Origin: an uncultured Candidatus Binatia bacterium
GTDB lineage: Bacteria > Desulfobacterota > Binatia > UBA9968 > JAJDTQ01
Assembly (NCBI GenBank): GCA_965242525.1
Contig: OZ251459.1
Location: 4,000,001-4,064,000, forward strand
Direction: 5' to 3'
Length of the DNA stretch: 64,000 nucleotides
Part shown: positions 3,364 to 45,956 of the stretch, in pieces
How positions within the stretch are numbered: the stretch's first letter is position 1
Layout: every line of letters begins with the position of its first letter
Program-made: the position numbers and the translations under genes
Notes under the pieces: generated by a model
Database searches by the model: none
Seen by the model: only the letters and a program-made list of their open reading frames with translations
What the model was told of the DNA's origin: nothing

Positions 3364-3643
3364 GGGACCTGTGAACGATCGGCACAGGGGACATGAGCGC
3401 GTCCTTCGACTTCGCTTCGCTACGCTCAGGACGAACGGAGGACTTCGCGTACGCCCCATCCCCGTCATTCCCGCGAAAGCGGGAATCCATCCGGTTTCCT
3501 GGCAAGGTCTGGATTCCCGCTTTCGCGGGAATGACGATGGGTGGGCGTCTGCGGGGATGACGGGATGGGGAGTGTCGCAAACCACACGAATTCAGGAAGC
3601 GCCCGGGAATCCCTCCCGGAGGTCTCGATCGTTCGGAGGTTCC
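3364..3643. mobile_element. MITE-B copy (GGAACCTCTG-type TIRs) containing REP2 and a REP1 doublet
   Basis: Ends gggacctgtgaacgatcg ... cgatcgttcggaggttcc; internal ccttcgacttcgcttcgctacgctcaggacgaacgg; inverted cgtcattcccgcgaaagcgggaatcc pair at 3463-3536. Confidence 0.7.
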
Positions 3644-3644
3644 C

Positions 3645-4398: not shown

Positions 4399-4424
4399 CC
4401 CCCCCCCCCCCCCCCCCCCCCCCC
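4399..4424. repeat. poly-C homopolymer (26 nt)
   Basis: Counted directly in the sequence. Confidence 0.9.
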
Positions 4425-4678
4425 GTCATTCCCGCGAAAGCGGGAATCCAGACCTTGCGAGCAAACCTCATGGCGCCCTATGAAGGAACCTCTGGACAAT
4501 CGCGACAGAGGGTATGAGCACGTCCTTCGACTCCGCTTCGCTACGCTCAGGACGAACGGGGATAGGGGTGTCAGGGTGGGAGAATCGGGGTCCATCCTGG
4601 AGGTCCCGATCGTTCAGATGTTCCTGAAGTGGATTCCCGCCCCCGCTTCCGCGAGGACATGCTTTCGCGGGAATGACG
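4424..4678. repeat. REP1 inverted doublet interrupted by a MITE-B (4485-4624, TSD TGAA)
   Basis: cgtcattcccgcgaaagcgggaatcc ... tgaa[ggaacctctggacaatcg...cgttcagatgttcc]tgaa ... gctttcgcgggaatgacg. Confidence 0.8.
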
Positions 4679-4704
4679 GGATGGGAGTGTCACAACCCAC
4701 ACAA

Positions 4705-4931: not shown

Positions 4932-4963
<32 letters not shown>

Positions 4964-5007
4964 GGTCCGGGAGATACGGCAATGGCGCACCGTGGGAGGG
5001 TAAGACA

Positions 5008-10374: not shown

Positions 10375-10460
10375 GCCTTGCTTTTCGGACGCCGGGACGT
10401 AACATGGAGTAGCGGCCCCGAACCGCCCACATTCCGTGCCGATACGGACGATTGGGAACG

Positions 10461-10724
10461 ATGTACATCTACGCAGTCATCCTGACCGAACCCGACGTGG
10501 CCGCCTGGGAACGCGTGCGGGAGAGTTGGCCGGGGGAGCACCTCATCCTGACGGACCGGATTGCCTTCGTCCGGGAGCAAGCCGTCACGACGACCCATGA
10601 CGTGGCCGACAAAGTCGGAATGAACCGGGAAGGGAACGTAAACGGTTTCGTGCTCGATACGGCCTACATTGCCGGGTGGACCAGTTCCCGATTGTCGGAA
10701 TGGATGGATAAGATCAGTGGCTGA
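10461..10724 (+). CDS. hypothetical protein
   Basis: 87-codon ORF MYIYAVILTEPD... with protein-like composition; its stop overlaps the next gene start. Confidence 0.6.
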   Translation: MYIYAVILTEPDVAAWERVRESWPGEHLILTDRIAFVREQAVTTTHDVADKVGMNREGNVNGFVLDTAYIAGWTSSRLSEWMDKISG

Positions 10725-11115
10725 AATCGCGGGCATTGGCCGAGCGAGGGGTCTCGTGCGTCCCGGCAACGGGAATGGAGGCGGTCACGAGATCCACGAA
10801 CGGCTCGCACGAATCGAGATACGGATGGAATCCGTGGCGTCCCGCGAGGACGTGGCTGCAATCAAGGCACGGATGGAATCCATGGCGTTCCGCGAGGATG
10901 TGGCCGAAATCAAGGCACGGATGGAATCCATGGCGTCCCGCGAGGACGTGGCCGCAATCAGGACACAGATGGAATCCATGGCGTCCCGCGAGGACGTGGC
11001 CGCAATCAGGACGCTCATCGAGGAAAAGGAAACCAGGACGCTGCGATGGTTGATCGGTGTAACCGTTGCAGCATCGATCAGTCTGCTTGCGACGCTGCTT
11101 CGCACGCTTCTCTAG
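10717..11115 (+). CDS. coiled-coil protein with C-terminal TM anchor (DUF1640/CCDC90-like)
   Basis: Four MES(M/V)A(S/F)REDVA(A/E)I repeats, then RTLRWLIGVTVAASISLL; GTG start. Confidence 0.7.
   Translation: MAEIAGIGRARGLVRPGNGNGGGHEIHERLARIEIRMESVASREDVAAIKARMESMAFREDVAEIKARMESMASREDVAAIRTQMESMASREDVAAIRTLIEEKETRTLRWLIGVTVAASISLLATLLRTLL
10825..11016 (+). repeat. 4 x 48-bp in-frame tandem repeat
   Basis: atggaatcc at 10825, 10873, 10921, 10969. Confidence 0.92.
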
Positions 11116-11199
11116 CCCGAAGTTCCCCGGACCGGCTGCGCCATCGGCCCACGGACTTCCCGGTCCGGTCCCGCGGCGGCTCCGTGCATCCCCTGCTCT

Positions 11200-11228
11200 T
11201 GGACATTGACGCGGGCCTGTGTTACAAA
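11200..11228 (+). promoter_or_regulatory. putative sigma70-type promoter of tRNA-Asn
   Basis: TGGACA-17 nt-TACAAA with an extended -10 TGn, 11 nt before the tRNA. Confidence 0.4.
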
Positions 11229-11239
11229 AGTCAGCCTGT

Positions 11240-11315
<76 letters not shown>

Positions 11316-11354
11316 CTGAATCGACCGTTGACTCTTGCGGCTGGTTGCCGGACA

Positions 11355-11394
11355 CGAGACCCCGAGGGGCCAACCCGTCGGGGTCTCGTCGTTT
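11355..11394 (+). terminator. stem-loop after the tRNA, probable terminator
   Basis: cgagaccccga...tcggggtctcg inverted repeat followed by tcgttt. Confidence 0.55.
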
Positions 11395-11417
11395 GCGGCG
11401 GGACCGGAGGTTCGAGC

Positions 11418-12431
11418 ATGCGTTTCGGCATCGCGTTCGGGAGCTATCCGTCGGACCTGGACCCCGTGGAGGTCTGCCGCGACTTCACCCGGAGGGCGCA
11501 GGTTGCCCACGACAGCAACTACGAAGCCCTCTTCGTCGCCCAGCACTACGCCACCGGACCCGACGCGGCCATGCTCCAGTCCCTGCCGCTGCTGTCCTAT
11601 TTCGCCGGCGTGGCCCCCGGCATGTACCTGGGCACAGCCGTTTTCCTGCTGCCCATGCACCAGCCCCTGATGGTGGCGGAGTACGCCTCCACGCTCGACA
11701 ACCTGTGCAACGGCAAGTTCCTGTTCGGCGTCGGCCAAGGCTACCGCGACCTGGAGTTCGATTCCCTGGGCGTGTCCCGACGCGAGCGGCGCCAGCGGCT
11801 GGTGGAAGGCATCGAGGTGGTCAAGCGGCTGTGGACCGAGGACGATGTGCGCCACCACGGGCGGTTCTACCGCATGGACGGCGTCACCATCGAGCCGAAA
11901 CCGATCCGGAAGCCCCGGCCGCCCATCCTGCTGGGGGCCGACACCGTGCCCACGGTGGCCCGGGCGCCGGAAATAGCGGACCACTGGATCGCCAGCCGCC
12001 GCCACACCAAGGGGTTCCTGCGGGAAGCGCTGCCGGCCTACAAGCGCGCCCTGGACGAGCACGGGAGGCCCTTCGAGGGCCTGTACATCTTTCGCGACCT
12101 GTGCGTGGCCGACAGCCGAGAGGAAGCCGAAAAGCGCGTCCGCGAGGGCTACGAGCGGCGTTACCGGCGGTACCAGAGCTGGGGCCAGCCGGGCGAGCGT
12201 TACGACCTGCCGTTCGAGCAGTTGCAGCAGGACCGCCTGGTGCTCGGCAGCCCCGCGGAAGTCACCGAGCAGGTGATGGCCTACCACGAGGAGTTCGGCG
12301 CCGAGTTCATGTGGTTCATGGTGGACTGGCCCGGCGTGGACCCGGGCATCACCCTGGAGACCATCCAGCGCTTCGGCGAAGAGGTCATCCCGGAGTTGAA
12401 GCGGCTCACCCCGGAGTGCCCGCTGCCCTAG
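11418..12431 (+). CDS. LLM class flavin-dependent oxidoreductase
   Basis: MRFGI, AQHY, GTAVFLLPMHQP, FGVGQGYR, PKPIRKPRPPILLG, GSPAEV; RBS GGAGG. Confidence 0.92.
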   Translation: MRFGIAFGSYPSDLDPVEVCRDFTRRAQVAHDSNYEALFVAQHYATGPDAAMLQSLPLLSYFAGVAPGMYLGTAVFLLPMHQPLMVAEYASTLDNLCNGKFLFGVGQGYRDLEFDSLGVSRRERRQRLVEGIEVVKRLWTEDDVRHHGRFYRMDGVTIEPKPIRKPRPPILLGADTVPTVARAPEIADHWIASRRHTKGFLREALPAYKRALDEHGRPFEGLYIFRDLCVADSREEAEKRVREGYERRYRRYQSWGQPGERYDLPFEQLQQDRLVLGSPAEVTEQVMAYHEEFGAEFMWFMVDWPGVDPGITLETIQRFGEEVIPELKRLTPECPLP

Positions 12432-12501
12432 CCGCGGGTCCGAGGGGGTAGGGACCGGCGGCGCCCGCGGGCAGGGCGGGCCTTGCGGAACGGAGGAGAG
12501 C

Positions 12502-13398
12502 ATGAAGACGCCGTCGTCGCTGATTACGTTGGGCACCGCGGGCGGGCCGTCGTTGACCCCGCGCCGGGCCCAGTCGTCCAACCTCCTGACCGTCAACGGG
12601 ACCTGTTACCTGGTGGACGCCGGCGACGGCGTGGCGCGGCGCATGGCCAGGGCCGGCGCGGACGTGCGCCGGGTCGGGACCATATTCCTCACCCACCACC
12701 ACGACGACCACACCGCCGGCCTCGGCACGCTCATGTCCCTGGCCTGGGACCGCCAGCGCACGGAGCCCATCCACGTCTATGGCCCGCCCCGCACCGCCGA
12801 GCTGGTGGAGGCCGCGGTCCGGTACGGCAGCTTCAGCGCCGACATACGGATCGCCGACGGCGGCCGGAGCGTGCCCCTGGACGAGGTCTTCTTCGGCCAC
12901 GACGCGGGCGTGGGCGAGGTCTATGGGGACGACAACGTGCGGGTGACCGCGGTGGAGAACACCCACTTCAGCTTCCACCGGGGCGGCGACGCCGGGCGCT
13001 ACAAGTCCTACTCCTACCGCTTCGAGACCCCAGACCGGGTGGTCGTGTTCACCGGCGACACGGGACCCAGCGCCGCGGTCGCCGCGCTGGCCAGGGGGGC
13101 GGACCTGCTGGTCACCGAGACCTCCTCGTGCGACGAACGCCGGGAGGCGATGACGAAGGACGGCCGCTGGCAGGCCATGACTCCCGCGGAGCGGGAAGGC
13201 ATCATGCGGCAGGCCACCCAGGGGCACATGAACCTGGAGCTCATCGGCCAGCTCGCCGCCCAGGCCGGGGTCAAGACGGTGGTGATGTCCCACCTCACCC
13301 GGCGCGTGGACGACCGCGGCTACGAGCCCTGGGCCGAAGAGGTGAGGAAGCACTTCTCCGGCCAGGTGTTCATCGCCGAGGACCTGATGGAGTTTTGA
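12502..13398 (+). CDS. MBL-fold metallo-hydrolase (RNase Z/arylsulfatase-like)
   Basis: LGTAGGP, LVDAGDG, FLTHHHDDH, FTGDTG, VMSHL. Confidence 0.9.
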   Translation: MKTPSSLITLGTAGGPSLTPRRAQSSNLLTVNGTCYLVDAGDGVARRMARAGADVRRVGTIFLTHHHDDHTAGLGTLMSLAWDRQRTEPIHVYGPPRTAELVEAAVRYGSFSADIRIADGGRSVPLDEVFFGHDAGVGEVYGDDNVRVTAVENTHFSFHRGGDAGRYKSYSYRFETPDRVVVFTGDTGPSAAVAALARGADLLVTETSSCDERREAMTKDGRWQAMTPAEREGIMRQATQGHMNLELIGQLAAQAGVKTVVMSHLTRRVDDRGYEPWAEEVRKHFSGQVFIAEDLMEF

Positions 13399-13405
13399 GT
13401 TTCGG

Positions 13406-13595
13406 GGCTCTGCAGGAATCCCACTTCGTCATTCCCGCGAAAGCGGGAATCCATCCATTTTGTACAACGAGGTCGAGAAAAGTGGATTCCCGCTTTCGCG
13501 GGAATGACGAAGTGGGCGTCTGCGGAGCAATGACGGCGTGGTTCCTGTCGCTCCCCTTCCCCTCCTGCCTTGTCCACACGAAAGCCGGAAGCGCC
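13406..13595. mobile_element. MITE-A copy containing a REP1 doublet (13427-13509); near-perfect 8-bp TSD
   Basis: agtttcgg[ggctctgcaggaatc...ccacacgaaagccggaagcgcc]ggtttcgg. Confidence 0.65.
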
Positions 13596-13637
13596 GGTTT
13601 CGGGAAGACCGGGCGGGCCGGATGTCCCGCGTGGGCG

Positions 13638-14708
13638 CTATCCTCCGAGCCCGTAGAAGGCCCGCGAGTTGGCGTCCAGGATCTTGTCCGCTTGGCGGCT
13701 GCTGATTCTGCCTTCGTCCGCCCAGTTGCGCACCTCGTTGAGCCCGCTCAGGTTGGCCGAGATGTCGGTGTGGCTGTAGTCGGTGCCGATCATCAGGTTG
13801 TCCTCGGTCCCGAACTTCAGGATCGACTCGATGTCGTCGATGGGGTCGAGGGTGATGAAGGTCCGGTTCTCCCGGAACATCTCCGGCTCCAGGTCGAACA
13901 GGTGGGGCAGCCGGGTCTGCTTGCCTCGCAGCAGCGCGCGTTTCTGCGCCCCCAGTTGCGACATGACGTAGGGGATCCAGGACGCCCCGGACTCGATGAA
14001 ACCGAACCGGAGCTTGGGGAACCGTTTGGGCACGTCGGAGCTCACCAGTTCGGCGAAGGAGTACATGATCGGGAAGCCCCGGTCCCATTCGCGCCCCGGC
14101 AGCGGATGGCCGGTGTGGATGCACAGGGGCATGTCCAGGCTGCCGGCCTCTTCATAGACCGGGAAGAAGTGCGGGTCCGTGACCTTCCGGTTCAGGTCGA
14201 AGCCCCGCTTGAATATGCCGCAGGCGCCGTGCTCCCTGGCCCAGCGCAGCTCCTCCACGGCCGTCTCGGGCCGCAGCCACGGCAACACCGCGGCCCACTG
14301 CAACCGCCCGCGGGTGGGCTCGCACTTCTCGGCCAGCCAGCGGTTGTAGGTGGTGGCCAGCGCCCATTCCGCTTCCGCGTTGACGGTGTTGTGGCGGATG
14401 AAGAAGGTGGGGAATATGACCTGGACGTCCACCCCCATCTCGTCCATGTGGGCGAGACGGCCCTCCACGTCCTCCAGCTCCCGCCGCACCCGGAGGGGGT
14501 GGTTGACCTCGTCCCGGACCGCGCGGTTCTGGAGCCTGCCTTCCACCACCCAACTGCGGCGGGTGGTGCTGTTGAAGCCGGCGCGCTCGGCCTCTTCCGG
14601 CGACATGTGGACCGTCACCGGTATGTACTTGGCGTAAGGGGTGCCTTCCAGCTTGGTCCAGGTGGACTCGGACTCGTCCACGTGGGTGTCGGCATCGATC
14701 ACGGGCAT
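13638..14708 (-). CDS. amidohydrolase family 2 protein
   Basis: VIDADTHV, MDEMGVDVQVIFPT, PLCIHTG, FIESGASWIP, IGTDYSH; RBS GGAGG. Confidence 0.92.
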   Translation of the reverse strand: MPVIDADTHVDESESTWTKLEGTPYAKYIPVTVHMSPEEAERAGFNSTTRRSWVVEGRLQNRAVRDEVNHPLRVRRELEDVEGRLAHMDEMGVDVQVIFPTFFIRHNTVNAEAEWALATTYNRWLAEKCEPTRGRLQWAAVLPWLRPETAVEELRWAREHGACGIFKRGFDLNRKVTDPHFFPVYEEAGSLDMPLCIHTGHPLPGREWDRGFPIMYSFAELVSSDVPKRFPKLRFGFIESGASWIPYVMSQLGAQKRALLRGKQTRLPHLFDLEPEMFRENRTFITLDPIDDIESILKFGTEDNLMIGTDYSHTDISANLSGLNEVRNWADEGRISSRQADKILDANSRAFYGLGG

Positions 14709-14739
14709 GGCAAAACCTCCCTGGGTGCTATGTAACCAA

Positions 14740-14870
14740 GGAACCTCTGAACGATCGAGACGTCCGGGATGGATTCCCGATTTCCTCACCCTGACGCCCC
14801 TGGCCCCGTTCATCCTGAGCGTAGCGAAGCGAAGTCGAAGGACGCTCTCTCCCGATTGTCCAGAGGTTCC
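14740..14870. mobile_element. MITE-B copy, TSD CCAA/CTAA
   Basis: ccaa[ggaacctctgaacgatcg...cgattgtccagaggttcc]ctaa with internal REP2. Confidence 0.8.
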
Positions 14871-14877
14871 CTAAGTA

Positions 14878-16089
14878 CTAAGTAGTCTCCTCGATCCCCG
14901 CCCGGGTCTCCGCCACCACCATATCGACCACGGCGCACAGCGCCTCCGCGTCCGTGTCCCCCTCCAGGCGGCGGAGACGGAACAGGTCGATCTGGCGGTC
15001 TGCGCTGGCGCCGTTGCGGATGATGGAGAGGGCGTGCCGCAACTCCTCCTCGCAGCCGAGGGCGCGGGCGTCGTCGGCCAATTCCTCGACGAGCCCCGCG
15101 GCGTAGTCCTCGATGTCCATGCGCCCGCCTCCGCTCCCGCGGGTGTCGCCGAGGAAGCCGAGCACGCCGTAGCGCTGGGCGAGCCAGCGGTTCTCCGCGA
15201 TGATCTCGGTGGCCGGCTCGGGCGGCAGCGCGCCTTCCCGGTCCAGCCGCAGGAGCCGCCGGATGAGGGAGGCGTAGATGGCGGCGATGCACACCGCGTC
15301 CTCGATGCGCGTGCAGATGTCGCAGATCCGCATCTCCACCGTGGGATAGGCGTGGGAAGGGCGGATGTCCCACCACAGCTCGCTGCCGTCCTTGAGGAAC
15401 TCCATGCGCCGGTAGTCGGCCAGGAGCTGGTCGTATTCCGCCCGGGACCACAGCGGCCCCGGCACGCTGGTGCGCGGCAGGCCGCCGATGAGGTTCAGGC
15501 GGTAGGACTTGAACCCGGTCTCGTGGCCGGCGTTGAACGGCGACGAGGTGGAAAGCGCGTGGAGCAGCGGAAGGTAGCGCCGCATCGCGGTCATGACCCG
15601 GATGCGCGAATCCGGGTCGCCGAAGCCGGCATGGATGTGCATCCCGCCGATGAGGAACTGGCGCACGGCCTCCTGGAATATGACCGCGAAGCGCTGGTAG
15701 CGCTCCTTGGGGGTGACCATCTGCGCCCGCCACGCGGCGAAGGGATGGGTGGAGGCGGCCATGAGCGCGGCCCCGTATTTCTCGGCCGCGCCCACCACCA
15801 GCCGGCGGGTCTCCCGCAGGGCGTCGCCCACGTCCGCCACCGACTTGCAGATCCGGGTGTTGGTCTCGATCTGGGTGCGGAGGAGCTCCCGGACCACCTT
15901 GTGGGGTCCGCCGTCGTTCTCGCAGGTCTCGAAGATGCCCAGGTCCGGGTCGGCCACCAGGTCCCGGGACTCGGGATCCACGAGGAAGAACTCCTCTTCG
16001 ACCCCGAGGGTGATGTCGAGGCCGTGGTCGTCTTCCTGCTCCGCGCGGTCGCCCGCGCCCGTGATCTTGCGCAGATTCCTGAAGGCCAT
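14878..16089 (-). CDS. ybdK: carboxylate-amine ligase / glutamate--cysteine ligase GCS2 (YbdK family)
   Basis: TLGVEEEFFLVD, GMHIHAG, ALSTSSPF, LWWDIRPS, TVEMRICD, ENRWLAQRYG. Confidence 0.9.
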   Translation of the reverse strand: MAFRNLRKITGAGDRAEQEDDHGLDITLGVEEEFFLVDPESRDLVADPDLGIFETCENDGGPHKVVRELLRTQIETNTRICKSVADVGDALRETRRLVVGAAEKYGAALMAASTHPFAAWRAQMVTPKERYQRFAVIFQEAVRQFLIGGMHIHAGFGDPDSRIRVMTAMRRYLPLLHALSTSSPFNAGHETGFKSYRLNLIGGLPRTSVPGPLWSRAEYDQLLADYRRMEFLKDGSELWWDIRPSHAYPTVEMRICDICTRIEDAVCIAAIYASLIRRLLRLDREGALPPEPATEIIAENRWLAQRYGVLGFLGDTRGSGGGRMDIEDYAAGLVEELADDARALGCEEELRHALSIIRNGASADRQIDLFRLRRLEGDTDAEALCAVVDMVVAETRAGIEETT

Positions 16090-16256
16090 GTCCCGCCTCG
16101 TCCAGCGCGGTCCCGGGCCCCCGGGACCGCGGTTCGCAGTATTGCACGGGCCGCGGGGGGAGGCAAGCGCCGGTTGCGCCCGCCGGGCCCACGTTGTATA
16201 AGGGGCGGTTCGCCAAAGCGAGGTTCGTGCTCATCGGACGAGACCGCCACGAAAGC

Positions 16257-16973
16257 ATGATCACTCCCAACCAGGCCATCCCTCCCCTTCTCGCCCTCGC
16301 CCTCACCATGACCCTGTTCCAGGCGAACGGGGAGGCCTGCACGGACCACGGAAGCGCGGGCGCCGAATCCGCCTGCCGCGACCGCGTTCGCGCGCGCGCC
16401 CCCGGCGACGGCATGGTCCGCATCCTGCGCACCGCCTGCGAGGACGGCGCGGTGGCGCGCTGGAACGCGGTCGATCGCGAAGCGGTGACGTTCAAGGTCA
16501 ACAACTGGGTCGGCGTGCCCCGCGAGCTGGCCCGGGCGGTCCGCCGGGGCGTGCTGCAATGGAACCGGGTGCAGCCGTTCTACGCCATGCGCGAGACCGC
16601 GGACGAAGCCGCGGACATCACCATCGAGGTGTTCGACGACGTGTTCCCGGGGGTCGTCGGCGCCACCAAGGTCAAATGCCGCAACGGCCAGGAAGGCATC
16701 CGCAAGGCCTACGTCTATCTCGGGGTCCGGGGCGCGGGCGCGGTGGAGGTGCGGAACATGACGGCCCACGAGATCGGGCACGCCATGGGCCTCGGCCATT
16801 CGGACCGGAGCCATGACCTCATGGACGCGGGACTGGCGGAGAAGGACATGGCCGAACGCGCCATCTGCCCCAGCAACCTGAACCTCGCGGGGTTGATCGC
16901 CGGGACCCATTCCTACGCCATCCCAGAAGAGGAGTGGGCCGAGGTGGACTGCGCCGGACGGGTTCCCGGATGA
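16257..16973 (+). CDS. secreted matrixin/M10-like zinc metalloprotease
   Basis: Signal-like N-terminus; HEIGHAMGLGHS zinc motif followed by Met-turn DLM. Confidence 0.8.
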   Translation: MITPNQAIPPLLALALTMTLFQANGEACTDHGSAGAESACRDRVRARAPGDGMVRILRTACEDGAVARWNAVDREAVTFKVNNWVGVPRELARAVRRGVLQWNRVQPFYAMRETADEAADITIEVFDDVFPGVVGATKVKCRNGQEGIRKAYVYLGVRGAGAVEVRNMTAHEIGHAMGLGHSDRSHDLMDAGLAEKDMAERAICPSNLNLAGLIAGTHSYAIPEEEWAEVDCAGRVPG

Positions 16974-17010
16974 GGCGGGGGAAGGGGACGGCAGGGGCGG
17001 CGGTGGCGCC

Positions 17011-17811
17011 ATGGTGACCTCCGGCTGGACGATCCCGTCCGCGCTGGCCGATTTCCGCAGCATCGAGAGCGCCTTGCGCGGCAGGCGGGCGGCGGTGTTC
17101 CTCGACTACGACGGCACCCTGACGCCCATCGTGGACACCCCCGAGCAGGCGGCGCTTTCCGACGAGATGCGGGACGCGCTCCGGGAGCTGGGCTGCGTCT
17201 GCAGCGCCGCCATCGTGAGCGGGCGCGCGCGCGAGGACGTGCAGGAACGGGTCCGGCTCGACCGGCTCTTCTACGCCGGCGCCCACGGCTTCGATATCGT
17301 CGGGCCCGCGGGTTCCGGCATCCGCCACGAGGTGGGACGGGAGGTCCTGCCGGTCATGGAGGCGCTGCACCGGCGGCTGCGCGCCGCCCTCGCCCATGTC
17401 CCCGGCCTGTTGCTGGAGACCAAGGGCTACTCCGTGGCGGTCCACTACCGGCTTGCGGACGAGGCCGCAGCGCCCGGGGTGGAGGCGGTGGTGGACGACC
17501 TGCTGAAGGACCAGAGCGCCCTGCGCAAGACCCGCGGGAAGAAGGTGTTCGAGATCCGGCCCCGGCTCGACTGGCACAAGGGCAGGGCGGTGGAGTGGAT
17601 CCTCGGCGCCCTGGGCCGAGGCCACGCCCCCGTATATCTCGGCGACGACGCCACGGACGAGGACGGCTTCCGGGCCGTGGCCGCGGCCGGGGCGGGCATC
17701 CTGGTGGCGGACCGGCCCCGCGCCACCGCCGCGGGCTACCGGCTGGAGGACCACCTGGAAGTGGGCCGTTTCCTCCGTCGTCTGGCCCGGACCCTCCATG
17801 CGCCCGCGTAG
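17011..17811 (+). CDS. otsB: trehalose-6-phosphate phosphatase (HAD)
   Basis: [52 protein letters not shown]. Confidence 0.92.
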
Positions 17812-17871
17812 CCCGTCGGCGCCCATGCCTTCCGCCCGGCGTTCCCCCGGACGGACGCTCGCGGAACCCTG

Positions 17872-19104
17872 ATGGCGGACCCGCGCGAACTTTGGTGGAG
17901 CCGGCTCCGGGCCGCGGGAATGCCGGGGGTCCCGGAGGAGTTCTCGGTGACGTTCGCGCACCAGGAAATCCCCGCCCGGGCGCTGGCCGAGATCGACGAC
18001 TTCATCCGCGTCTTCGAGGACGTGACCACGAGACCCGCGTGGCGGGAGAACGTGATCCGCTGGTCCGGCCGCGGCCTGCCCGCGGCGCGGCCGGAGACCT
18101 GCTTCTTCAGCGCCTGGGACTTCCATCTGCCGCCGGACGGACCGTGGCAGGTCATCGAGTTCAACGACAACGGGTCCGGCCTGCTGTACGCCGGCCTCGT
18201 CAACGAGTCCTTCCACGACCTACTGGAGCCGTCCCGGAAGGCCGCCCTCGAAGCGCCGCCTTCGTCCGCGGAGCTGGGGCGGCGCGTCCGGCGGATGGTC
18301 CGGGGGGAGGCCGCGGCGTTCTTCGGGGCCGCGCCCGACGGAGTGTTCCTGGTCCTCGACGAGCCCGAATCCCTGGAGCGGGGCAAGTTCCTGGGCGAGA
18401 TGGAGATGCTGCGGGACCTCCTGGGCGAGGACGGCTGGACGGCGCGGGTGGGCTCCACCGCGGAGTTGCGCTGGAGCCGCGGGCGCCTGCTCCACGACGG
18501 GGCGCCGGTGTCGTTCGTCGTGAACCGTTCCACGGACTTCTTCCTGGAGAGAGAGGCCGCGGCCCCGCTGCGGCAGGCGTTCCTGGACGGCGGGACGTAC
18601 GTCGCGCCCAACCCCTTCACCTACGCCACCCGCAGCGACAAGCGGCTGCTGGAATACCTGTCGCTGCCCCGGTGGGACGAGACCCTCGGCATCGACGCCC
18701 GGGAGCGCGAGGTCCTGGGCCGGCACGTGCCCGAGACCCGCCTGCTCCGGCCCGACAACGTGGAGGCCCTGGCGGACCGCAAGGACGAGTTCGTGTTCAA
18801 GCCCGCCCACAGCCACGCCAGCCGGGGGTTCCTCCCCAGCGCGAAGGTGGGGCGTTCCCGGCTGCGGCGGCTGGTGCGGAAGGGGGAGGGTTACGTGGCC
18901 CAGCGGAAGGCGCCGCGCTCCCGGGCGTTCCTCGAAGACGGCTCGCAGGTGTGGGCGGACCTGCGCGTGTGGGCGTACCGGGGCGAGCGGGTGCTCCTCT
19001 CGGGGCGGTGCTCGGTGGACCCGGACTCGCTGGACCTGAGCCCCCCCGCGGGATGGCTCCCCACCTTCGCCGCCCGCTCCCGGCAGCCCGGCGACGGGAG
19101 TTGA
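17872..19104 (+). CDS. circularly permuted ATP-grasp / glutathionylspermidine-synthase-like protein
   Basis: DFHL...VIEFNDNG, PNP...SDKRLL, FVFKP...ASRG, YVAQ, DLRVWAY. Confidence 0.6.
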   Translation: MADPRELWWSRLRAAGMPGVPEEFSVTFAHQEIPARALAEIDDFIRVFEDVTTRPAWRENVIRWSGRGLPAARPETCFFSAWDFHLPPDGPWQVIEFNDNGSGLLYAGLVNESFHDLLEPSRKAALEAPPSSAELGRRVRRMVRGEAAAFFGAAPDGVFLVLDEPESLERGKFLGEMEMLRDLLGEDGWTARVGSTAELRWSRGRLLHDGAPVSFVVNRSTDFFLEREAAAPLRQAFLDGGTYVAPNPFTYATRSDKRLLEYLSLPRWDETLGIDAREREVLGRHVPETRLLRPDNVEALADRKDEFVFKPAHSHASRGFLPSAKVGRSRLRRLVRKGEGYVAQRKAPRSRAFLEDGSQVWADLRVWAYRGERVLLSGRCSVDPDSLDLSPPAGWLPTFAARSRQPGDGS

Positions 19105-19210
19105 CCGCCCCGCCGGCGTGTTCTACACGTTGGAGAATGTCCGAACCATCGGGACAGAGAGGATGGATTCCCTCGCCCCCGATGCGGGTCCCGGAACGGA
19201 GGAACGAGAC

Positions 19211-20914
19211 ATGATCGAAGTCAACGGGCTCACGGGGGCAGAGGCGTTGTTGCGCGTGCTGTCCGGCATGGGGGTGGAGCGGATCTTCGCGTCTCCGGGC
19301 TCGGAGTGGTCGCCGGTGTGGGAGGCGCTGGCCAAGCCGGACGAAAGCGCCCCGGCGTACCTGAGCTCCCGGCACGAAGAGGTGGCCCTGGCCATGGCCA
19401 GCGGCTACGCCAAGGCCACCGGCAAGCTCCCCGGGGTCATGATCCACACCACCGTGGGCGCGCTCCACGGCTCCATGGCGCTTCGCGGAGCGCTCCACGA
19501 GCAGGTGCCCATGGTGGTCTTCACCGGCGAGTCCATCGCCTACGGCGAGGACGACGGGCCCGACCCAGGCGGCCAATGGCTGCGCTTCCTCTCGGACGTG
19601 GGCGGCCCGGCGCGGCTGGTGGACCGTTGCGTGAAGTGGAGCTTCGGGGTCAACGACCGGCACATCCTGGTCTCCACTGTCCAGCGCGCCTGCCAGATGG
19701 CCATGAGCTCGCCCCGGGGTCCGGTGTTCGTGTCGCTGCCCATGGAGTACCTGTTCGACGAGGTGGTCCGGGAGACGCCCCTCAAGGCGTCCATGCCCTC
19801 CCTGCCGAGTCCCGACCCCAAGGGCATCGGCCAGTTGGCCGACCTGCTGCGGACGGCCGGGAACCCGGTCATCGTGAGCGAGAACGCCGGCAGGACCGCC
19901 GGCGTGGTCGAACGGATGGTGGAGCTGGCGGAGCTGCTCGACGCCCCGGTGGTGGAGACCCGGAGCAGCGGATACTTCAACTTCCCCCGGGACCACGAGC
20001 TGCACGGCGGCTTCGAGCCCGGGGAGTTCATGGCCGACGCGGACGCGGTCTGCCTCGTGGGCGCCACCCAGCCCTGGCATCCGGCGTCGGCGCCCGGGGC
20101 GCCGGGGGCCAAGGTGGCGGCGCTGGACGAGGACCCGCTGCACATGGATCTGCCCTACTGGGGGTTCCAGTTGGACCTGAGCATCGTGGGAGAGCTGGAA
20201 GCGTCCCTGACCGCGCTGCTGGAGCGGCTCCGCAAGGACGGCGCCAAGGGGAGCGCGGAACGGCGGGCGAGGGTGCGGGAGAAAGGCGCGGCGCGGCGGG
20301 CCGAGTGGGTCCGGCAGGCCCGGGGCCTGGAGTCCCGGGATCCCATCGACACCAACTGGGTCATGTACCAGCTCAACCGGGCCATCCCCGACGACGCGTA
20401 CCTGGTGGAGGAGACCATCACCCACCGCATGGCGGTGCACCAGTACCTGGACCGGGTGAGGCCCGGCAACTTCTTCAGCGGCTGCATCGGGGGCCTGGGC
20501 ACCGGCCTGGGCACGGCCCTCGGGGTCAAGGCGGCGCACCCGGACAAGCCGGTGGTGCTGGTCATCGGCGACGGCTCGTTCAACTACAACCCCGGCATCG
20601 CGGGCTTCGGTTTCGCCCAGGAGTTCCGCATGCCGCTGCTCGTCGTGCTCATGAACAACCACGGCTACAAGTCCATGAAGCGGGGCGTGCCGGCGTACTA
20701 TCCCGAAGGGTGGGCGGTGCGCGCCAACCAGTTCGTGGGCACGTCCATCGCGCCCGCGCCCGACTACGCGGCCATCGCCCGGGCCTTCGACGGCTTCGGC
20801 GAGCGCGTGCAGCGCCCGGACACGGTGGGACCGGCACTGGAGCGCGGCCTGCAGGCGGCCGGGGAAGGCCGGTTGGCGCTGGTGGACGTCTGGCTGGAGC
20901 CGGTCAACGACTGA
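19211..20914 (+). CDS. thiamine pyrophosphate-binding protein (acetolactate synthase / benzoylformate decarboxylase-like)
   Basis: RHEEVALAMASGYAK, GPVFVSLP, TPP motif GDGS...NN. Confidence 0.92.
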   Translation: MIEVNGLTGAEALLRVLSGMGVERIFASPGSEWSPVWEALAKPDESAPAYLSSRHEEVALAMASGYAKATGKLPGVMIHTTVGALHGSMALRGALHEQVPMVVFTGESIAYGEDDGPDPGGQWLRFLSDVGGPARLVDRCVKWSFGVNDRHILVSTVQRACQMAMSSPRGPVFVSLPMEYLFDEVVRETPLKASMPSLPSPDPKGIGQLADLLRTAGNPVIVSENAGRTAGVVERMVELAELLDAPVVETRSSGYFNFPRDHELHGGFEPGEFMADADAVCLVGATQPWHPASAPGAPGAKVAALDEDPLHMDLPYWGFQLDLSIVGELEASLTALLERLRKDGAKGSAERRARVREKGAARRAEWVRQARGLESRDPIDTNWVMYQLNRAIPDDAYLVEETITHRMAVHQYLDRVRPGNFFSGCIGGLGTGLGTALGVKAAHPDKPVVLVIGDGSFNYNPGIAGFGFAQEFRMPLLVVLMNNHGYKSMKRGVPAYYPEGWAVRANQFVGTSIAPAPDYAAIARAFDGFGERVQRPDTVGPALERGLQAAGEGRLALVDVWLEPVND

Positions 20915-38287: not shown

Positions 38288-38733
38288 GGCTCTTCCGGCT
38301 TTCGTGTGGGTAAGGCAGGATGGAAAGGGGAGCGACAGGGATCACGCCGTCATTCCCGCAGCCGCCCACTCCGTCATTCCCGCGAAAGCATGTCCTCGCG
38401 GAAGCGGGGGCGGGAATCCAGCCATTTTGTACAACGAGGTAGAGAAAAGGAACCTCTGAACAATCGAAAGATCCAGGATGGATTCCCGATTCCCTCACCC
38501 TGACGCCCCTATTTCCGTTCGTCCTGAGCGTAGCGAAGCGGAGTCGAAGGACGTGCTCGTGCCCCCTGTACGGATTGTTCAGAGGTTCCAAAAGTGGATT
38601 CCCGCTTTCGCGGGAATGACGGAGTGGGGCGTCCGCGACGCCAAACCGAAAACGGCATGGTCGGAACAGGAAGGAAGCTAACCTCATCGTGTGCGTGGGG
38701 AGTGTCACAATCCACACGAATTCCTGAAGAGCC
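38288..38733. mobile_element. MITE-A copy containing a REP1 doublet (38372-38621), itself interrupted by MITE-B (38449-38589, TSD AAAA)
   Basis: tcggaggt[ggctcttccggctttcgtgtggg...tccacacgaattcctgaagagcc]tccgaggt. Confidence 0.72.
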
Positions 38734-42251: not shown

Positions 42252-43982
42252 TCAACGGCCGTGACCCACCGCTCCCTTTTCCGGGTCCGTGCCGGCGAAC
42301 AGGCCCCGGAACCGCTCGCGCAACTCCGCCTTCACCACTTTGCCCAGCTCGTTGCGGGGGATGGCGTCCACCGGAACGACCCGCTTCGGCGTCTTGTAGG
42401 ACGCGAGCTCCGTCTTCAGATACCGGATGCACGCGCTTTCGTCGAACTCGCCGGACGGCGCGGTCTCCACCGCCGCGACCACGGCCTCGCCGAAGTCCGG
42501 GTGCGGCGCGCCGAACACCGCGGCGCCGGCCACCCCGGGGCACCGGCCCAGGACTTCCTCCACCTCCCCGGGATAGACGTTCAGGCCGCCGGTGATGACC
42601 ACGTCGGTCTGCCGCCCCAGGATGCGAACGCAGCCCTGGGCGTCGATCTCCGCCACGTCCCCGGTCACGAACCAGCCGTCTTCGGTGAACGCCCGCTCGT
42701 CCGGGCGGAGCCAGTAGCCGGCGAAGACGTTGTGCCCCCGGGTCTCCAGCACGCCCGCGGCCGAGGACTCGAAGCGCCCGCGGTCGTTGGCCACCCGTAC
42801 CCGCACCCCGGGCAGCGGCCACCCCACCCATCCCTGCCGTCCCGCGGCGCCCGGCGGGACCGCGGTGACGATGGCGGCCTCGGTGGAGCCGTAGCGCTCG
42901 ACGATCTCCATGCCCGTGACCCGCCGGAACTCCTGCGCGGTTTCCCGCGGCAGCGGCGCCGAGCCGGAGACGGCCAAGCGCAGCGCCCCCGCCGCCGCGG
43001 CCAAGCCCGGCTCCCGGACCAGACGCGCGTAGTGCGTGGGCACCCCCATGATGACGGTGCAGCCGGGCAGGGCCCGCAGCACGCTCTCCGGCTCGAACCG
43101 GGCCAGGAAGCAGACCGCGCCGCCGGCCCGGAGCATGACGTCGATGGCGGTCAGGAGCCCGTGGGCGTGGAAGGCCGGCAGCGCGTGCAGCAGCACGTCC
43201 CCGGGCCCCAACCGCCAGACCTCCGCCAGCGCCTCGGCGCTGTCGGCCAGGTTGCCGTGGGTGATGAGCGCGCCCTTGGGCCGTCCGGTGGTGCCGGAAG
43301 TATAGAGCAGCGCCGCAGGCGCATGGGCGGGCAGCTCCACGGCGTCGGCCGCGGACCCGGAGGCTCGGGCCAACTCGGCAAAGGAACCCTGGCCGCCCTG
43401 GGAACCCCGGCTGTCCTGGGATCCCTGGCCGCCCCAGGAATCCTGGCCGCCCCGGAGCCCTTGGCTGTCCCAGGAACCTTGGCCGTCCCGGGAACCCCGG
43501 CTGTCCCGGGAACCTTGGCCTCCATGGATCCCTTGGCTGCTCCAGGAACCCCAGCCACCCCGGGAACCCTGGCTGTCCCGGGAACCCCAGCCGCCCCGGA
43601 GTCCCTCGATGCGGAAACCGTGGGTCGCGGCGGCCGCGGCGAAGGTCTCGGTCTCGTCGGGGTCGCACACCAGCAGACGGGGGCGCGCGTCGGCCAGCAG
43701 CGCCTCCGTCTCTCGCGGGGTATAGGCGGTGTTCATGGGGTGGAGTATGGCGCCGACCTTGAAGCAGGCGTGGGCCAGGAACACCGCTTCCACGCACTTG
43801 TGGACCTTTACCGAGACCCGGTCCCCCGGCCGGACGCCGCAAGCGGCCAAGGCGCCCGCGGCGTGGTCGATGGCGGTGGTCGCGTCCCCTGTGGAGAGGG
43901 ACGGCCCGCCCGGCAGGACGAAGGCCGGGTCGTCGTCGGCTCGGTGGCCGTACAGTGCATGGATCAGGTTGCCGCTGGTCAT
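42252..43982 (-). CDS. AMP-dependent acyl-CoA synthetase (malonyl-CoA synthetase MatB-like) with a low-complexity insertion
   Basis: YTSGTTGRPKG, HALPAFHAHGL, MGVPTHY, ERYGSTE, WFVTGD, PRNELGKV. Confidence 0.88.
   Translation of the reverse strand: MTSGNLIHALYGHRADDDPAFVLPGGPSLSTGDATTAIDHAAGALAACGVRPGDRVSVKVHKCVEAVFLAHACFKVGAILHPMNTAYTPRETEALLADARPRLLVCDPDETETFAAAAATHGFRIEGLRGGWGSRDSQGSRGGWGSWSSQGIHGGQGSRDSRGSRDGQGSWDSQGLRGGQDSWGGQGSQDSRGSQGGQGSFAELARASGSAADAVELPAHAPAALLYTSGTTGRPKGALITHGNLADSAEALAEVWRLGPGDVLLHALPAFHAHGLLTAIDVMLRAGGAVCFLARFEPESVLRALPGCTVIMGVPTHYARLVREPGLAAAAGALRLAVSGSAPLPRETAQEFRRVTGMEIVERYGSTEAAIVTAVPPGAAGRQGWVGWPLPGVRVRVANDRGRFESSAAGVLETRGHNVFAGYWLRPDERAFTEDGWFVTGDVAEIDAQGCVRILGRQTDVVITGGLNVYPGEVEEVLGRCPGVAGAAVFGAPHPDFGEAVVAAVETAPSGEFDESACIRYLKTELASYKTPKRVVPVDAIPRNELGKVVKAELRERFRGLFAGTDPEKGAVGHGR
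43383..43598 (-). repeat. 12 x 18-bp in-frame tandem repeat
   Basis: Units like ggaaccc(c/t)ggc(c/t)g(c/t)cc(c/t)g on the + strand, encoding (G/D)(G/S)(Q/R/W) triplets. Confidence 0.9.
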
Positions 43983-44033
43983 GGCCGGGTCGGGATTCTG
44001 CGTCTGTGTCGAGAAAACTCGGAAGAAACTCCG

Positions 44034-44545
44034 GGCGCTTCAGGCTTTCGTGCGGGTTGTGACACTCCCCTCCCATGCGATGTGGTCCGATCCCCACCCA
44101 TTCCGACCATGCCGTCCTCGGTTTGGCGTCGCAGACGCCCTACCCTCCGCAGACGCCCCCTTCCGTCATTCCCGCGAAAGCGGGAATCCATCCGGTTTCA
44201 TCGCTCTCGTTGTACAACCCACTCCAGCTCGGATGACCCTTCTCGATCCACTCGATCTTCCTTGACCGATTCCGTTTCCGGACCGCCTTTTCTCTCCGGA
44301 TAGCGCTTTCCATGGGTTCAGGAACTTCGTTCCAACCAACCATGGCACAGTGATGCAGGGCGTCTCGAGGTTGGGTCGGAAGGACGGAAACACGGGAGAA
44401 TGGATGGATTCCCGCTTTCGCGGGAATGACGAAGGGTGGGGCATCTGCGGGAATGAGGGGAGTCGGCGTCTGCGGGGCAATGACCGCGTGTTCCTTTTCG
44501 CTCCCCTTTCCCTCCTGCCTTGCCCACACGAAAGCCGGAAGATCC
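44034..44545. mobile_element. MITE-A copy carrying REP1-[GIY-YIG remnant]-REP1
   Basis: ggcgcttcaggctttcgtgcggg ... cccacacgaaagccggaagatcc; internal arms homologous to 38288-38733 in reverse orientation. Confidence 0.7.
44205..44395 (-). pseudogene. internally deleted GIY-YIG nuclease (UPF0213-like) remnant
   Basis: VSVLPTQPRDALH resembles the N-terminal VYILAS..NGTLY; GWNEVPEPMESAIRREKAVRKRNRSRKIEWIEKGHPSWSGLYNE resembles WYE.H..M.SAI.REK.IKKW.R.WK..LIE..NP.W.DLY. Confidence 0.75.
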
Positions 44546-44547
44546 CG

Positions 44548-44949
44548 CTAGCTCAGCTCGTCCCGACGCATGCTCAGCAGCACCGCTGCGCCCGCGGACC
44601 CCACCATCGCCATCAGGGTGTAAACCACCGCCAGGATGGTTTCGCCGCTGCCCGACGGCGGGTGGTAGCGCCAGTACATCGCCGAGTTCAGGATCACGTA
44701 GATGGCGTACGCGTGGGCCAGCCCGAGGGCGAAGCGCTTCATGTACCAGAGGCCCAGGCCGTACACCACCAGGTAAGCGCCGAAGGCCAGGCTCCACAGG
44801 AGGTTGTCGCCGCCCGCCAGACGGGTACCGAGCAGGACGAAGCCGCTCTCCCCGCGGAGGTCCAACGGCTTCAGGAGGTTCGAGACCGCCAGCAGCCAGA
44901 AGCAGATGGCGAGCCCGCAGAAGACCCGATCCCGTGGTGGTCCAGCCAT
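44548..44949 (-). CDS. hypothetical membrane protein
   Basis: Four hydrophobic segments; RBS AGGAGG; SNLLKP, YGLGLWYMKRFAL. Confidence 0.75.
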   Translation of the reverse strand: MAGPPRDRVFCGLAICFWLLAVSNLLKPLDLRGESGFVLLGTRLAGGDNLLWSLAFGAYLVVYGLGLWYMKRFALGLAHAYAIYVILNSAMYWRYHPPSGSGETILAVVYTLMAMVGSAGAAVLLSMRRDELS

Positions 44950-45101
44950 GGTCGTCCTCCTTCCCGCGGCGGTCTCGTCACCGTCTCCGCGAACCCGGTC
45001 TCCGGGAGGGGCCTTCGGGCGCGCCGGGGCTATCCCGCCCGCCGGTGCGCCATCCACCCGCCGCTTCCCGGTAAGCGGGACGCCTACGGCCAGGACCGGG
45101 G

Positions 45102-45956
45102 CTATCCCGCCTGCCGGTGCGCCATCCACGATCCGTCGGCCGCGGAGCGGAACAACTCGGCCAGCGCCGCGTTGACCGCCGCGGGCTCTTCCAGGGGCAG
45201 GGTATGCCCGGAGCGCGGCGCCACCGCGAGGGCCGCCCCGGGCGCGGTGCGCTTGAGGAAGACGCTGCCGTCCAGGCACGGGTCGTCCTCGTCGCCCACC
45301 ATCACCAGCAGCGGCGTCTCCAGGCGCGACAACGGCTCCTCCAGGTCCCACAGGGTCGGGCGCCGCCCCTGGACTTGGGACATGGTGAGGGCCAGCCCCG
45401 CGGCCGAGTGGTCGGCGAGGGCCTTCTCGAACTCGGCGAACCCGCGCGGGTCCTTGGCCTCGAAGGGTTTGCGCATGGGTTGGCGCGCGTACCGGGCCGC
45501 GGCCTCGGCCATGGGCTCCTCCCGGAACATGCGGGCCAGGTCCGCGCACAGGGCCTCCCGTTCGTCCCGCTGGTCGGGACGGGAGCCCCAGCCGCAGCCG
45601 ATGGCGGCCACCGACAGGCAGCGCTCGGGGTAGCGGATGGCCACGTGGAGCGCCGTATAGGCCCCCATGGAGTGCCCCACGATGTGGGCCCGCTCCAGCC
45701 CGAGGCCGTCGAGCACCGCCCGCACGTCCTCCCGGGCCGCGTCCTGGCCGTACGCTTCCGGCGTCTCGGGCACGTCCGACGGCAGGTAGCCGCGGGAGTC
45801 GAAGGCGATGCAGCGGTGGGAACGCGAGAAGAACCGCACCTGGGGCTCGAAGCTCCGGCGGTCGCCGGCGAACTCGTGGACGAACACGACGGGGACGCCC
45901 CGCCCCGATTCCTCGTAGTGGAGACGGACGCCGTCGGCTGCGGTGACGGTCGGCAA
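45102..45956 (-). CDS. alpha/beta hydrolase
   Basis: VRLHYEESG, FVHEFAGD, VGHSMG, GDEDDPC, GHTL; TTG start inferred. Confidence 0.88.
   Translation of the reverse strand: MPTVTAADGVRLHYEESGRGVPVVFVHEFAGDRRSFEPQVRFFSRSHRCIAFDSRGYLPSDVPETPEAYGQDAAREDVRAVLDGLGLERAHIVGHSMGAYTALHVAIRYPERCLSVAAIGCGWGSRPDQRDEREALCADLARMFREEPMAEAAARYARQPMRKPFEAKDPRGFAEFEKALADHSAAGLALTMSQVQGRRPTLWDLEEPLSRLETPLLVMVGDEDDPCLDGSVFLKRTAPGAALAVAPRSGHTLPLEEPAAVNAALAELFRSAADGSWMAHRQAG

Follow-up and report, generated by a model that had tools for sequence, protein, structure and literature searches.

Decayed copy of a REP-flanked, ssnA-like GIY-YIG nuclease cassette and its multiplied deletion derivatives in a RAYT-less genome of the class Binatia

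The element described here occupies an intergenic position in a 64-kb window (the whole stretch of DNA that was analyzed, C1:4000001-4064000) from the genome of a Binatia-class bacterium, hereafter G000 (4.23 Mb, 67% G+C, completeness of 98.96%). At its core, positions 44164 to 44431 of the window, two inverted copies of a repetitive extragenic palindrome (REP) enclose a decayed gene for a small GIY-YIG nuclease of the type of SsnA, a protein encoded in Neisseria between repeats named NTS. This core is in turn set within a larger mosaic unit that has terminal inverted repeats (TIRs) of its own. From left to right, the components are as follows.

44034..44057, plus strand: outer terminal inverted repeat of the larger mosaic unit, GGCGCTTCAGGCTTTCGTGCGGGT
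44164..44189, plus strand: REP/NTS hairpin, exact match; the end adjoining the 3' end of the gene remnant
44190..44405, minus strand: decayed ssnA-type GIY-YIG gene, recognized by translation, BLASTP, blastn and DNA alignment
44406..44431, minus strand: REP/NTS hairpin, inverted copy, exact match; the end adjoining the 5' leader of the gene
44522..44545, minus strand: right-hand outer terminal inverted repeat of that mosaic unit

The space between the outer repeats and the REPs is filled by flank modules and half-REP units, and the mosaic unit as a whole, preceded by a nonrepeat leader of about 50 nt (43983-44033), takes up most of the 565-bp gap between two minus-strand open reading frames (ORFs; 42252-43982 and 44548-45549). 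At the matching site in the nearest relative, G023, this 565-bp intergenic stretch is absent and the flanking genes abut; within the window, the comparison with G023 took in positions 1-20000 and 43300-45200. An Rfam scan of 43000-45500 returned chance-level matches only.

The minus-strand translation of 44191-44403, ...WNEVPEPMESAIRREKAVRKRNRSRKIEWIEKGHPSWSGLYNESDETG, aligns in BLASTP with the C-terminal half of an intact paralogue located elsewhere in G000 (28 of 48 residues identical, 58%, E = 7e-18), and at the DNA level the remnant is 81.6% identical to that copy over 179 nt (blastn). It retains the 5' leader and the C-terminal half of the gene; the region of the start codon is gone, and a multiple alignment reveals a 76-column internal deletion that removes the segment with the conserved R28 and H32. 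A first-pass annotation of the window had described just this arrangement, two inverted palindromes around a decayed, internally deleted GIY-YIG gene, and the comparison with the paralogue bears it out. The same annotation had staked its proposal on a match of the remnant to a GIY-YIG hidden Markov model (HMM). Neither Pfam, which yielded no GIY-YIG match, nor NCBIfam recognizes the remnant, so that on this formal point the prediction fails; homology is accordingly demonstrated only via the intact paralogue.

The REP itself, CGTCATTCCCGCGAAAGCGGGAATCC, is 26 nt long. Its eight copies in the window are all exact, and 100 shuffles of the window produced no match, giving a chance expectation of none.

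Exact REP copies, plus strand: starting at 3463, 4424 and 13427, and at 44164-44189
Exact REP copies, minus strand: starting at 3511, 13484 and 38596, and at 44406-44431

Genome-wide, there are 236 copies at three or fewer mismatches, 215 of them exact; 56 adjacent head-to-head pairs (doublets), with spacers of 22 to 301 bp, leave 124 single REPs. Each REP is composed of a CGTC tag, an 8-bp stem (ATTCCCGC), a GAAA loop and a CC tail. With the next two bases it fits the published degenerate SRM motif in all three of its common variants, and where CCAG follows it fits the NTS consensus. SRM matches total 259, compared with 9 once the genome is reversed, and for exact matches to the NTS consensus the corresponding numbers are 60 and 0; the core of the Neisseria repeat dRS3, ATTCCCN8GGGAAT, has 227 matches in G000. 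The REP strand shows no bias with respect to replichore (50/43 and 15/16), a comparison from which we draw no inference because the skew extremes are oddly placed.

Repeats of this kind have been defined as CGTC-tagged REPs by Di Nocera, De Gregorio, and Rocco (2013; PMC3733652), whose CGTC-1 type, as characterized in the portion of that paper used here, has an 8-bp stem starting from AT, a 4-nt loop and a CCA tail, occurs mostly as head-to-head dimers and includes dRS3. The G000 REP shares the tag, stem, loop, tail and head-to-head dimers and so belongs to this type. In the same portion of the paper, no partner enzyme is given for CGTC-1 REPs and no connection is drawn between the dimer spacers and a gene.

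The intact paralogue noted above is enclosed by a single REP pair with a 301-bp spacer at C1:3303650-3304002, outside the window, where the first-pass annotation had expected the full gene to lie. This 104-aa GIY-YIG ORF (P0002; 95-aa core) matches the Pfam GIY-YIG model at 1.5e-15 and has no second domain. The cassette is tightly packed: the upstream REP stops 10 nt before the ATG, with AAGGA between them, and the TGA stop sits inside the downstream REP. P0002 is 61.5% identical over residues 4 to 94 (E = 2e-30) to the N. gonorrhoeae homologue, a 94-aa protein with Y6, Y17 and E64, and the equivalents of these SsnA residues, Y7, Y18 and E65, are invariant across 32 aligned homologues. A profile of the homologues reaches the UPF0213 structures 1zg2 (1.2e-5) and 1ywl (1.1e-3), in keeping with the UPF0213-like character that had been ascribed to the nuclease from the remnant; its top match, a WD40 protein, was disregarded, being assembled from many subthreshold stretches. 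A phmmer search with P0002 against the PDB found no matches.

A partnership of just such a protein with just such a hairpin has been described by Chenal et al. (2025, Nat Commun; PMC11893778). In the text of that paper drawn on here, about half of the dRS3 copies are a longer oriented motif, NTS (consensus CGTCATTCCCGCGMAVGCGGGAATCYRG), and SsnA of Neisseria is a 94-aa GIY-YIG protein encoded between NTS repeats; the SRM motif lies near 71% of the homologues, on both sides in 42%, and a homologue is present in 81% of the genomes that contain more than 200 SRM. In single-stranded DNA, and in that form only, the hairpin is bound by SsnA and three homologues, which cut it a few nucleotides 5' of the CGTC tag and leave the reverse strand uncut. 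The characterized homologues are inactive on double-stranded DNA, Y6A, Y17A and E64A mutants fail to cut, and in N. meningitidis the enzyme reduces transformation by NTS-bearing DNA. The discussion of that paper remarks on the resemblance of NTS-ssnA-NTS to an insertion sequence and suggests domestication and a link to repeat expansion.

Since the REP fits NTS and SRM and the protein fits SsnA, the element is a member of this known system. By its domain content and residues, P0002 is one of the single-domain GIY-YIG nucleases, about 95 aa in length, that make up the Ssn family; the 26-nt REP is, by analogy with the characterized enzymes, the probable cognate target hairpin of a P0002-type enzyme; and the element at 44164-44431 is, judging from its sequence, a dead copy of an NTS-ssnA-NTS cassette. 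The first-pass annotation had offered the pair as a possible new system, a claim anticipated by the 2025 publication, although its proposal of a nuclease-REP partnership agrees with the published biochemistry of the homologues. The system in G000 and that set out in the cited text are alike in the single-domain nuclease of about 94 aa, whose catalytic tyrosines and glutamate agree, in the hairpin on both sides of the gene, in the hundreds of copies per genome and in the occurrence in many phyla. They differ in that the cassette in G000 is multicopy, forms a graded deletion series and has multiplied in its deleted forms, and in that its host is a Binatia-class bacterium.

The deletion series is read from the doublets. 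By blastn, 45 of the 56 doublet spacers match the spacer of the intact cassette, whereas neither of two control sets, shuffled spacers and random genomic stretches of the same lengths, gives any match (0 of 56 each). The 11 unmatched spacers comprise six of 22 to 46 bp, two diverged members of a 70-bp class and three filled by a second, unrelated miniature inverted-repeat transposable element (MITE); at least three of the six very short ones (22, 31 and 32 bp) show the gene ends by eye. Of the 236 REPs, 124 have gene-derived DNA on their inner (TCC) side, a number that takes in 41 of the 124 single REPs, and 1 has it on the outer side. Not all parts of the gene persist equally: as many as 32 copies retain the first 80 nt and 10 to 18 retain the last 160 nt, and the part that encodes the conserved R28 and H32 survives in 1 to 6 copies only.

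Deletion junctions recur. The 76-column deletion of the window remnant is also present in three other long aligned copies, and three more copies, of a 195- to 197-bp class, resume at the same point as the remnant (blastn); in the 70-bp spacer class, which has about a dozen members, position ~91 is joined to position ~297 in at least eight. Identical junctions at several loci indicate that the deleted forms were copied after the deletion had occurred; the one junction that was read is a short-homology deletion. The series spans everything from 301-bp spacers to 22-bp doublets, with one intact gene left. The REP doublets of G000 are deletion derivatives of a REP-GIY-YIG-REP cassette, as had been surmised from the few copies in the window, and several of the deleted forms have multiplied as parts of larger mosaic units. 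Comparable mosaics are known from Neisseria, where inverted dRS3 copies likewise enclose modules of 20 to 300 bp in intergenic regions; according to the relevant text of Bentley et al. (2007; PMC1797815), a site-specific recombinase was proposed, with a phage transposase as the candidate. The difference is that many of the modules enclosed in G000 trace to one gene.

Within the window, four further loci represent the shorter members of the series and a single REP.

13427..13509, plus strand: minimal REP doublet; its 31-bp spacer is the 5' end of the cassette fused to the 3' end
38372..38621, plus strand: REP doublet with the same end-to-end junction as 13427-13509
3463..3536, minus strand: smallest REP doublet, with a 22-bp spacer
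4424..4449, plus strand: single REP; its inner flank starts agaccttgcgagcaaacc, the 5' coding part of the cassette

The spacer at 13427-13509, atccatt-ttgtacaacgag-gtcgagaaaagt, corresponds in the alignment to the outermost 5' and 3' sequences of the cassette, which upholds the earlier reading of it as cassette ends fused together. For 38372-38621, the end-to-end junction seen in that reading stands, and two complications had escaped it: the left REP is interrupted by an insertion in its loop (38372-38419), and a copy of the second MITE is inserted at 38450-38589 with aaaag on both sides. In the 3463-3536 doublet, the minus-strand spacer ends ...gaaaccggat, resembling the 3' end of the cassette; together with one outer-TIR module, this doublet is nested inside a copy of the second MITE, and the nest, of about 290 bp, is wholly absent from G023.

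Some features of these loci stand apart from the series. The loop-inserted REP variant, with a second small hairpin in the loop (cgtcattcccgcgaaagc-ttgccctcgaccccgatcggggg-cgggaatcc), is found at L004, L006, L007 and window 38372-38419 and recurs in several genomes, one of them from another family. Window 12489-13399 matches a displaced place in G023 (1610498-1611408) on the opposite strand; the window flanks 11200-12432 and 13636-14726 are contiguous in G023, and the 13427-13509 doublet borders the displaced piece (region 12489-13635). The single REP at 4424 is immediately preceded by a run of about 27 C residues (4398-4424), which could be an assembly artifact. No match to window 4094-11199 was obtained in G023 at E = 1e-60, and the REP at 4424 may edge a G000-specific stretch of about 7 kb.

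The first-pass annotation had called for a search for intact, REP-flanked homologues in other genomes, and these proved to be common. A scan with one genome per species recovered 311 relatives of the protein, and the best 80 loci were examined. They come from many phyla and include loci from Alphaproteobacteria (78% identity), Chloroflexota, Dehalococcoidia, Thermodesulfobacteriota and Betaproteobacteria (Massilia), as well as Bradyrhizobium, Thiohalophilus and Poribacteria. Ten loci with flanks shorter than 170 nt were dropped and 70 were analyzed for a perfect-stem hairpin with a GTC tag no more than 165 nt upstream, or its inverted form at or after the stop. Such a hairpin is present upstream at 47 loci, downstream at 50 and on both sides at 39, compared with 6 of 262 and 10 of 262 in control windows 730 to 1,300 nt away. 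The stems covary between lineages, with compensating changes (ATTCCCGC, ATTCCGGC, ATTCCTGC, ATTCCAGC, GTCCCCGC and ATGGCCGGG), and the CGTCA and TCCAG tags are conserved while the stems differ.

The identical 25-nt REP occurs 275 times in the chromosome of an alphaproteobacterial metagenome-assembled genome (MAG), 163 times in a member of the Chloroflexota, 89 times in Massilia norwichensis and 73 times in a member of the Dehalococcoidia. Two of these, single-chromosome genomes from other phyla (275 and 73 REPs), have one ssnA each and no Y1 transposase. G033, from another family, has just two REP cores at one or no mismatch, both exact and both among the hairpins flanking the gene. As a separate observation, the REPs of the Dehalococcoidia chromosome (G045) form long single-strand runs; one of these comprises 12 consecutive minus-strand copies (217 kb to 443 kb), and the next 11 copies are all on the plus strand.

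At the DNA level, the intact gene of G000 shares 85% identity with two copies from alphaproteobacterial MAGs and only 72 to 75% with the copies of three species of its own genus, which share a syntenic site and lack the upstream REP. The remnants in G000 are 79 to 83% identical to the intact G000 copy, and the closest DNA relatives found for the G000 cassette are those of Alphaproteobacteria. As the alphaproteobacterial identity exceeds that within the genus, the REP-flanked G000 cassette looks horizontally acquired and appears to have reached G000 by transfer across phyla.

The identity and history of the element, namely, an NTS-ssnA-NTS remnant, a deletion series and transfer, thus seem to us very well founded. 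The explanation that we favor for the whole, to which we give a cautious preference, adds a mode of spread: a transferred NTS-ssnA-NTS cassette decayed, its deleted forms multiplied, and the spread would have been driven by nicking by an Ssn nuclease. The last component is the most tentative, and we would rate its chances as rather below even, resting as it does on the published properties of the homologues. A head-to-head REP pair would set one cut site on each strand, just beyond either end of the unit. If made during a single-stranded state, a nick would leave a 3' end in the flank and would free a 5' strand beginning with the hairpin. Other REP-bearing loci could then receive the enclosed DNA by copying or strand invasion, with the repeated flank modules acting as homology.

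Several observations weigh against this account. Three REP-rich members of the genus, G001, G012 and G022 (498, 334 and 269 REP cores), have no ssnA homologue at E = 1e-5, and a search with the cassette DNA finds only the REP itself in them (in G015 and G017, it finds the REP and their own resident gene). In five species, including these three, twenty doublet loci have a palindromic spacer of about 48 bp (ccaggggtgg...ccacccctgg) unrelated to the nuclease gene; most of them are set within another outer repeat, ggctgtgtcaaaac. In the alphaproteobacterial genome with 275 REPs (G041) and in an N. gonorrhoeae record, we found no fragments of their own ssnA besides the gene. The genus-typical REP context, present in 5 to 509 copies in 20 of the 21 genomes with a RAYT-like gene (see below; the exception, G013, has 0), goes with that gene. 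The REP-bearing inserts absent from G023 could be gains in G000 or losses in G023. No target site duplication of the REP-bounded unit is evident at two empty sites in G023. Among copies of the 70-bp class, the limits of homology are not the REPs but the outer inverted repeats (GGCGCTTCAGGAATTCGTGTGGGT). The published one-strand cut per hairpin does not by itself excise a unit. Finally, the multiplied units exceed the doublet and the 3463 doublet is nested in a MITE, so that other vehicles could have done the copying.

From the unrelated spacers in REP-rich relatives and the lack of gene fragments in the two genomes searched elsewhere, we conclude that the origin of doublets by a deletion series is specific to this lineage and not general. 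Of the earlier suggestion that the nuclease is the autonomous partner that creates or spreads the REP family, the partnership holds; the creation or spread of the family by the nuclease is not supported by the present data. Its corollary, that REP number should track the nuclease, likewise finds no support in G001, G012 and G022 or in the context that follows the RAYT-like gene. The median number of REPs is 92 in the 8 genus genomes with a homologue and 37 in the 17 without, a weak correlation with ssnA in which kin are treated as independent and variant REPs are left uncounted.

The classical agents of REP spread are the REP-associated tyrosine transposases (RAYTs), and the possibility arises that a RAYT multiplied the doublets, including those that had captured a GIY-YIG gene, and was then lost from G000. 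The inverted REP pair, its many copies and the single-copy, repeat-flanked partner gene do resemble the REPIN-RAYT system as described in the text of Bertels and Rainey (2011; PMC3116915) consulted for this comparison; there, the partner is an HUH tyrosine transposase and the tag is GTAG, rather than a GIY-YIG nuclease and CGTC as in G000. A further difference is that G000 has no RAYT: the absence from the window stated in the first-pass annotation extends to the whole genome, with 0 matches to PF01797 and a best E value of 0.035 in a tblastn search with the RAYT-like protein of the genus.

That protein gives a RAYT some plausibility. In 21 of the 24 other members of the genus, a single-copy Y1-transposase-like gene adjoins icd; its product, which has a weak DnaA_C-like tail, reaches 70.1 bits against the NCBIfam model for REP-associated tyrosine transposases (cutoff, 80). 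High copy numbers of the genus-typical REP context are confined to genomes with this gene; the RAYT-less G000, G005, G023 and G002 have 0, 0, 1 and 6 copies. In G012, the RAYT-like gene has a REP doublet immediately upstream. We nonetheless regard a lost RAYT as highly improbable. The slot by icd is empty in both G000 and G023, yet these two differ in REP-bearing inserts and in REP number (233 versus 73 cores). G000 has none of the genus-typical context. In the six loci examined, the RAYT-like gene is never flanked on both sides by this REP, the two genomes from other phyla with 73 and 275 REPs do without any Y1 transposase, and the cited portion of PMC3733652 reports that no dedicated transposase was found for CGTC REPs. 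The context counts indicate that the same hairpin occurs in two contexts within one genus, of which only that of G000 and G023 is ssnA derived. In the present genomes, the cassette has multiplied in a lineage without a RAYT.

The main rival of Ssn-driven spread emerges from the repeats that surround the doublets. The outer repeat (GGCGCTTCAGGAATTCGTGTGGGT) has 149 copies at five or fewer mismatches, forming 28 pairs no more than 559 bp apart. Between it and the REPs lies a variable number of copies of a 22-nt half-REP unit (CGTCATTCCCGCAGACGCC; 133 copies at two or fewer mismatches). The second repeat family consists of a hairpin, GTCCTGAGCGTAGCGAAGCGAAGTCGAAGGAC, with 595 copies at four or fewer mismatches and 9 in the window, mostly inside a MITE with inverted ends GGAACCTCTGAACAATCG, of which there are 323.

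GTCCTGAGCGTAGCGAAGCGAAGTCGAAGGAC hairpin starts in the window: 3401, 4522, 4731, 14812, 29623, 36299, 38521, 38809 and 48417

The cassette may accordingly have been cargo, copied by the outer-repeat mosaic, by the second MITE or by homologous recombination between arrays, with the nuclease domesticated for a host function, such as the restriction of single-stranded DNA entering the cell as in Neisseria, and taking no part in REP multiplication. Such a history would explain why homology extends to the outer repeats, why a doublet is nested in the second MITE with the entire nest absent from G023, and why REPs abound in relatives without ssnA. The very large size of the second MITE family and the short duplication at 38450-38589 fit it as well, as does the published in vivo role of SsnA, which in the cited text is the modulation of transformation (PMC11893778). 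Four points tell in the other direction. We found no transposase between the more distant outer-repeat pairs, one such interval containing what we take to be an ISL3-like C-terminal fragment. Only 44 of the 236 REPs lie inside recognizable outer-repeat pairs. Gene-derived DNA is strictly confined to the inner side of the REPs (124 versus 1), and the REP-gene-REP layout is kept across phyla in which these vehicles are not seen. We consider the cargo explanation less likely than not and treat it as the foremost competitor. IS110-type transposases, which target REP/dRS3, are another conceivable agent; none was found in G000.

One observation on the half-REP units may be recorded separately. Tandem 22-nt units (CGTCATTCCCGCAGACGCCCACCC), as at window 44100-44163 and 44432-44480 and at L001 1354-1500, lack the right arm of the REP but have its left arm and the CGTC tag, and they lie on the outer side of the REPs, where the published enzyme cuts.

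A GIY-YIG nuclease might also act as a free-standing homing endonuclease that makes duplex breaks at REPs and has its gene copied by break repair, in the manner of T4 Seg or I-TevI. PHROGs searches do return weak matches to endonuclease and homing endonuclease families (5.7e-4 and 1.3e-3), the gene always adjoins its target, and a cycle of invasion, decay and loss would suit the many dead copies. P0002 is, however, a bare nuclease domain with no DNA-binding module, the characterized homologues described in the cited text of PMC11893778 have no activity on double-stranded DNA, and most REPs in other genomes lack a gene fragment; we judge this very improbable, the least likely of the mechanisms considered.

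Insertion sequences and their MITEs offer a general parallel: a small gene lies between inverted ends, and internally deleted, noncoding derivatives outnumber the intact copy. G000 likewise has inverted ends and multiplied deletion derivatives, but its enzyme is not of a known transposase type and its amplified units extend beyond the hairpins. A stronger proposition is that NTS-ssnA-NTS is a current or recent autonomous mobile element whose sole protein is a 95-aa single-strand GIY-YIG nuclease, the doublets being its nonautonomous derivatives. We regard this as doubtful. If true, it would amount to a route of transposition or homing that needs neither an HUH nor a DDE enzyme, and it would explain the identical 25-nt hairpin in Binatia, Alphaproteobacteria, Chloroflexota and Betaproteobacteria.

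Other subfamilies of stand-alone GIY-YIG proteins also lie between inverted copies of hairpins of their own (loci L127 to L138, from the relatives G003, G009, G010, G012, G023, G024, G032, G034, G036 and G039). For the subfamily MSFWVYILRC.DGSYYTGHTD, a GTCCTGAGCG...GAAGGAC hairpin is found upstream of six of nine genes by regular expression and of all nine by eye when short-loop variants are included, with the inverse hairpin after the stop in four of nine and, by eye, six of nine. The corresponding counts, by regular expression, for the subfamily ARPFFTYILRCSD.SYYVGHTD and its hairpin CCCCGAGTAGCG...CGAGGGG are three of three upstream and two of three downstream (inverse). The copy of the MSFWVYILRC subfamily in G000 (C1:3870142-3870351) contains two disrupting TAG codons, and the hairpin lies upstream of it. 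In a wider form of the above proposition, each stand-alone GIY-YIG (UPF0213-like) subfamily would have its own hairpin family, and the 595-copy GTCCTGAGCG...GAAGGAC hairpin would belong to a second such pair.

Relative to the literature searched and to the main text of PMC11893778, in which the words remnant, pseudogene, MITE and RAYT do not occur, what is new is a cassette that is multicopy and decaying and whose deletion derivatives have multiplied in a lineage without a RAYT, together with the apparent arrival of the cassette from another phylum and the division of one REP between a RAYT-linked and an ssnA-derived context. REP doublets with the same hairpin can thus have two origins within one genus, one linked to a RAYT-like gene and the other derived from ssnA. 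CGTC-tagged REPs had no known partner before the Ssn nucleases of 2025, and on the resemblance of NTS-ssnA-NTS to an insertion sequence, a passing remark in that publication, G000 supplies evidence at the sequence level. With its multicopy cassette, its decay, its multiplied deleted forms and its lack of a RAYT, G000 provides a good natural case in which to ask whether Ssn nucleases move or copy DNA.

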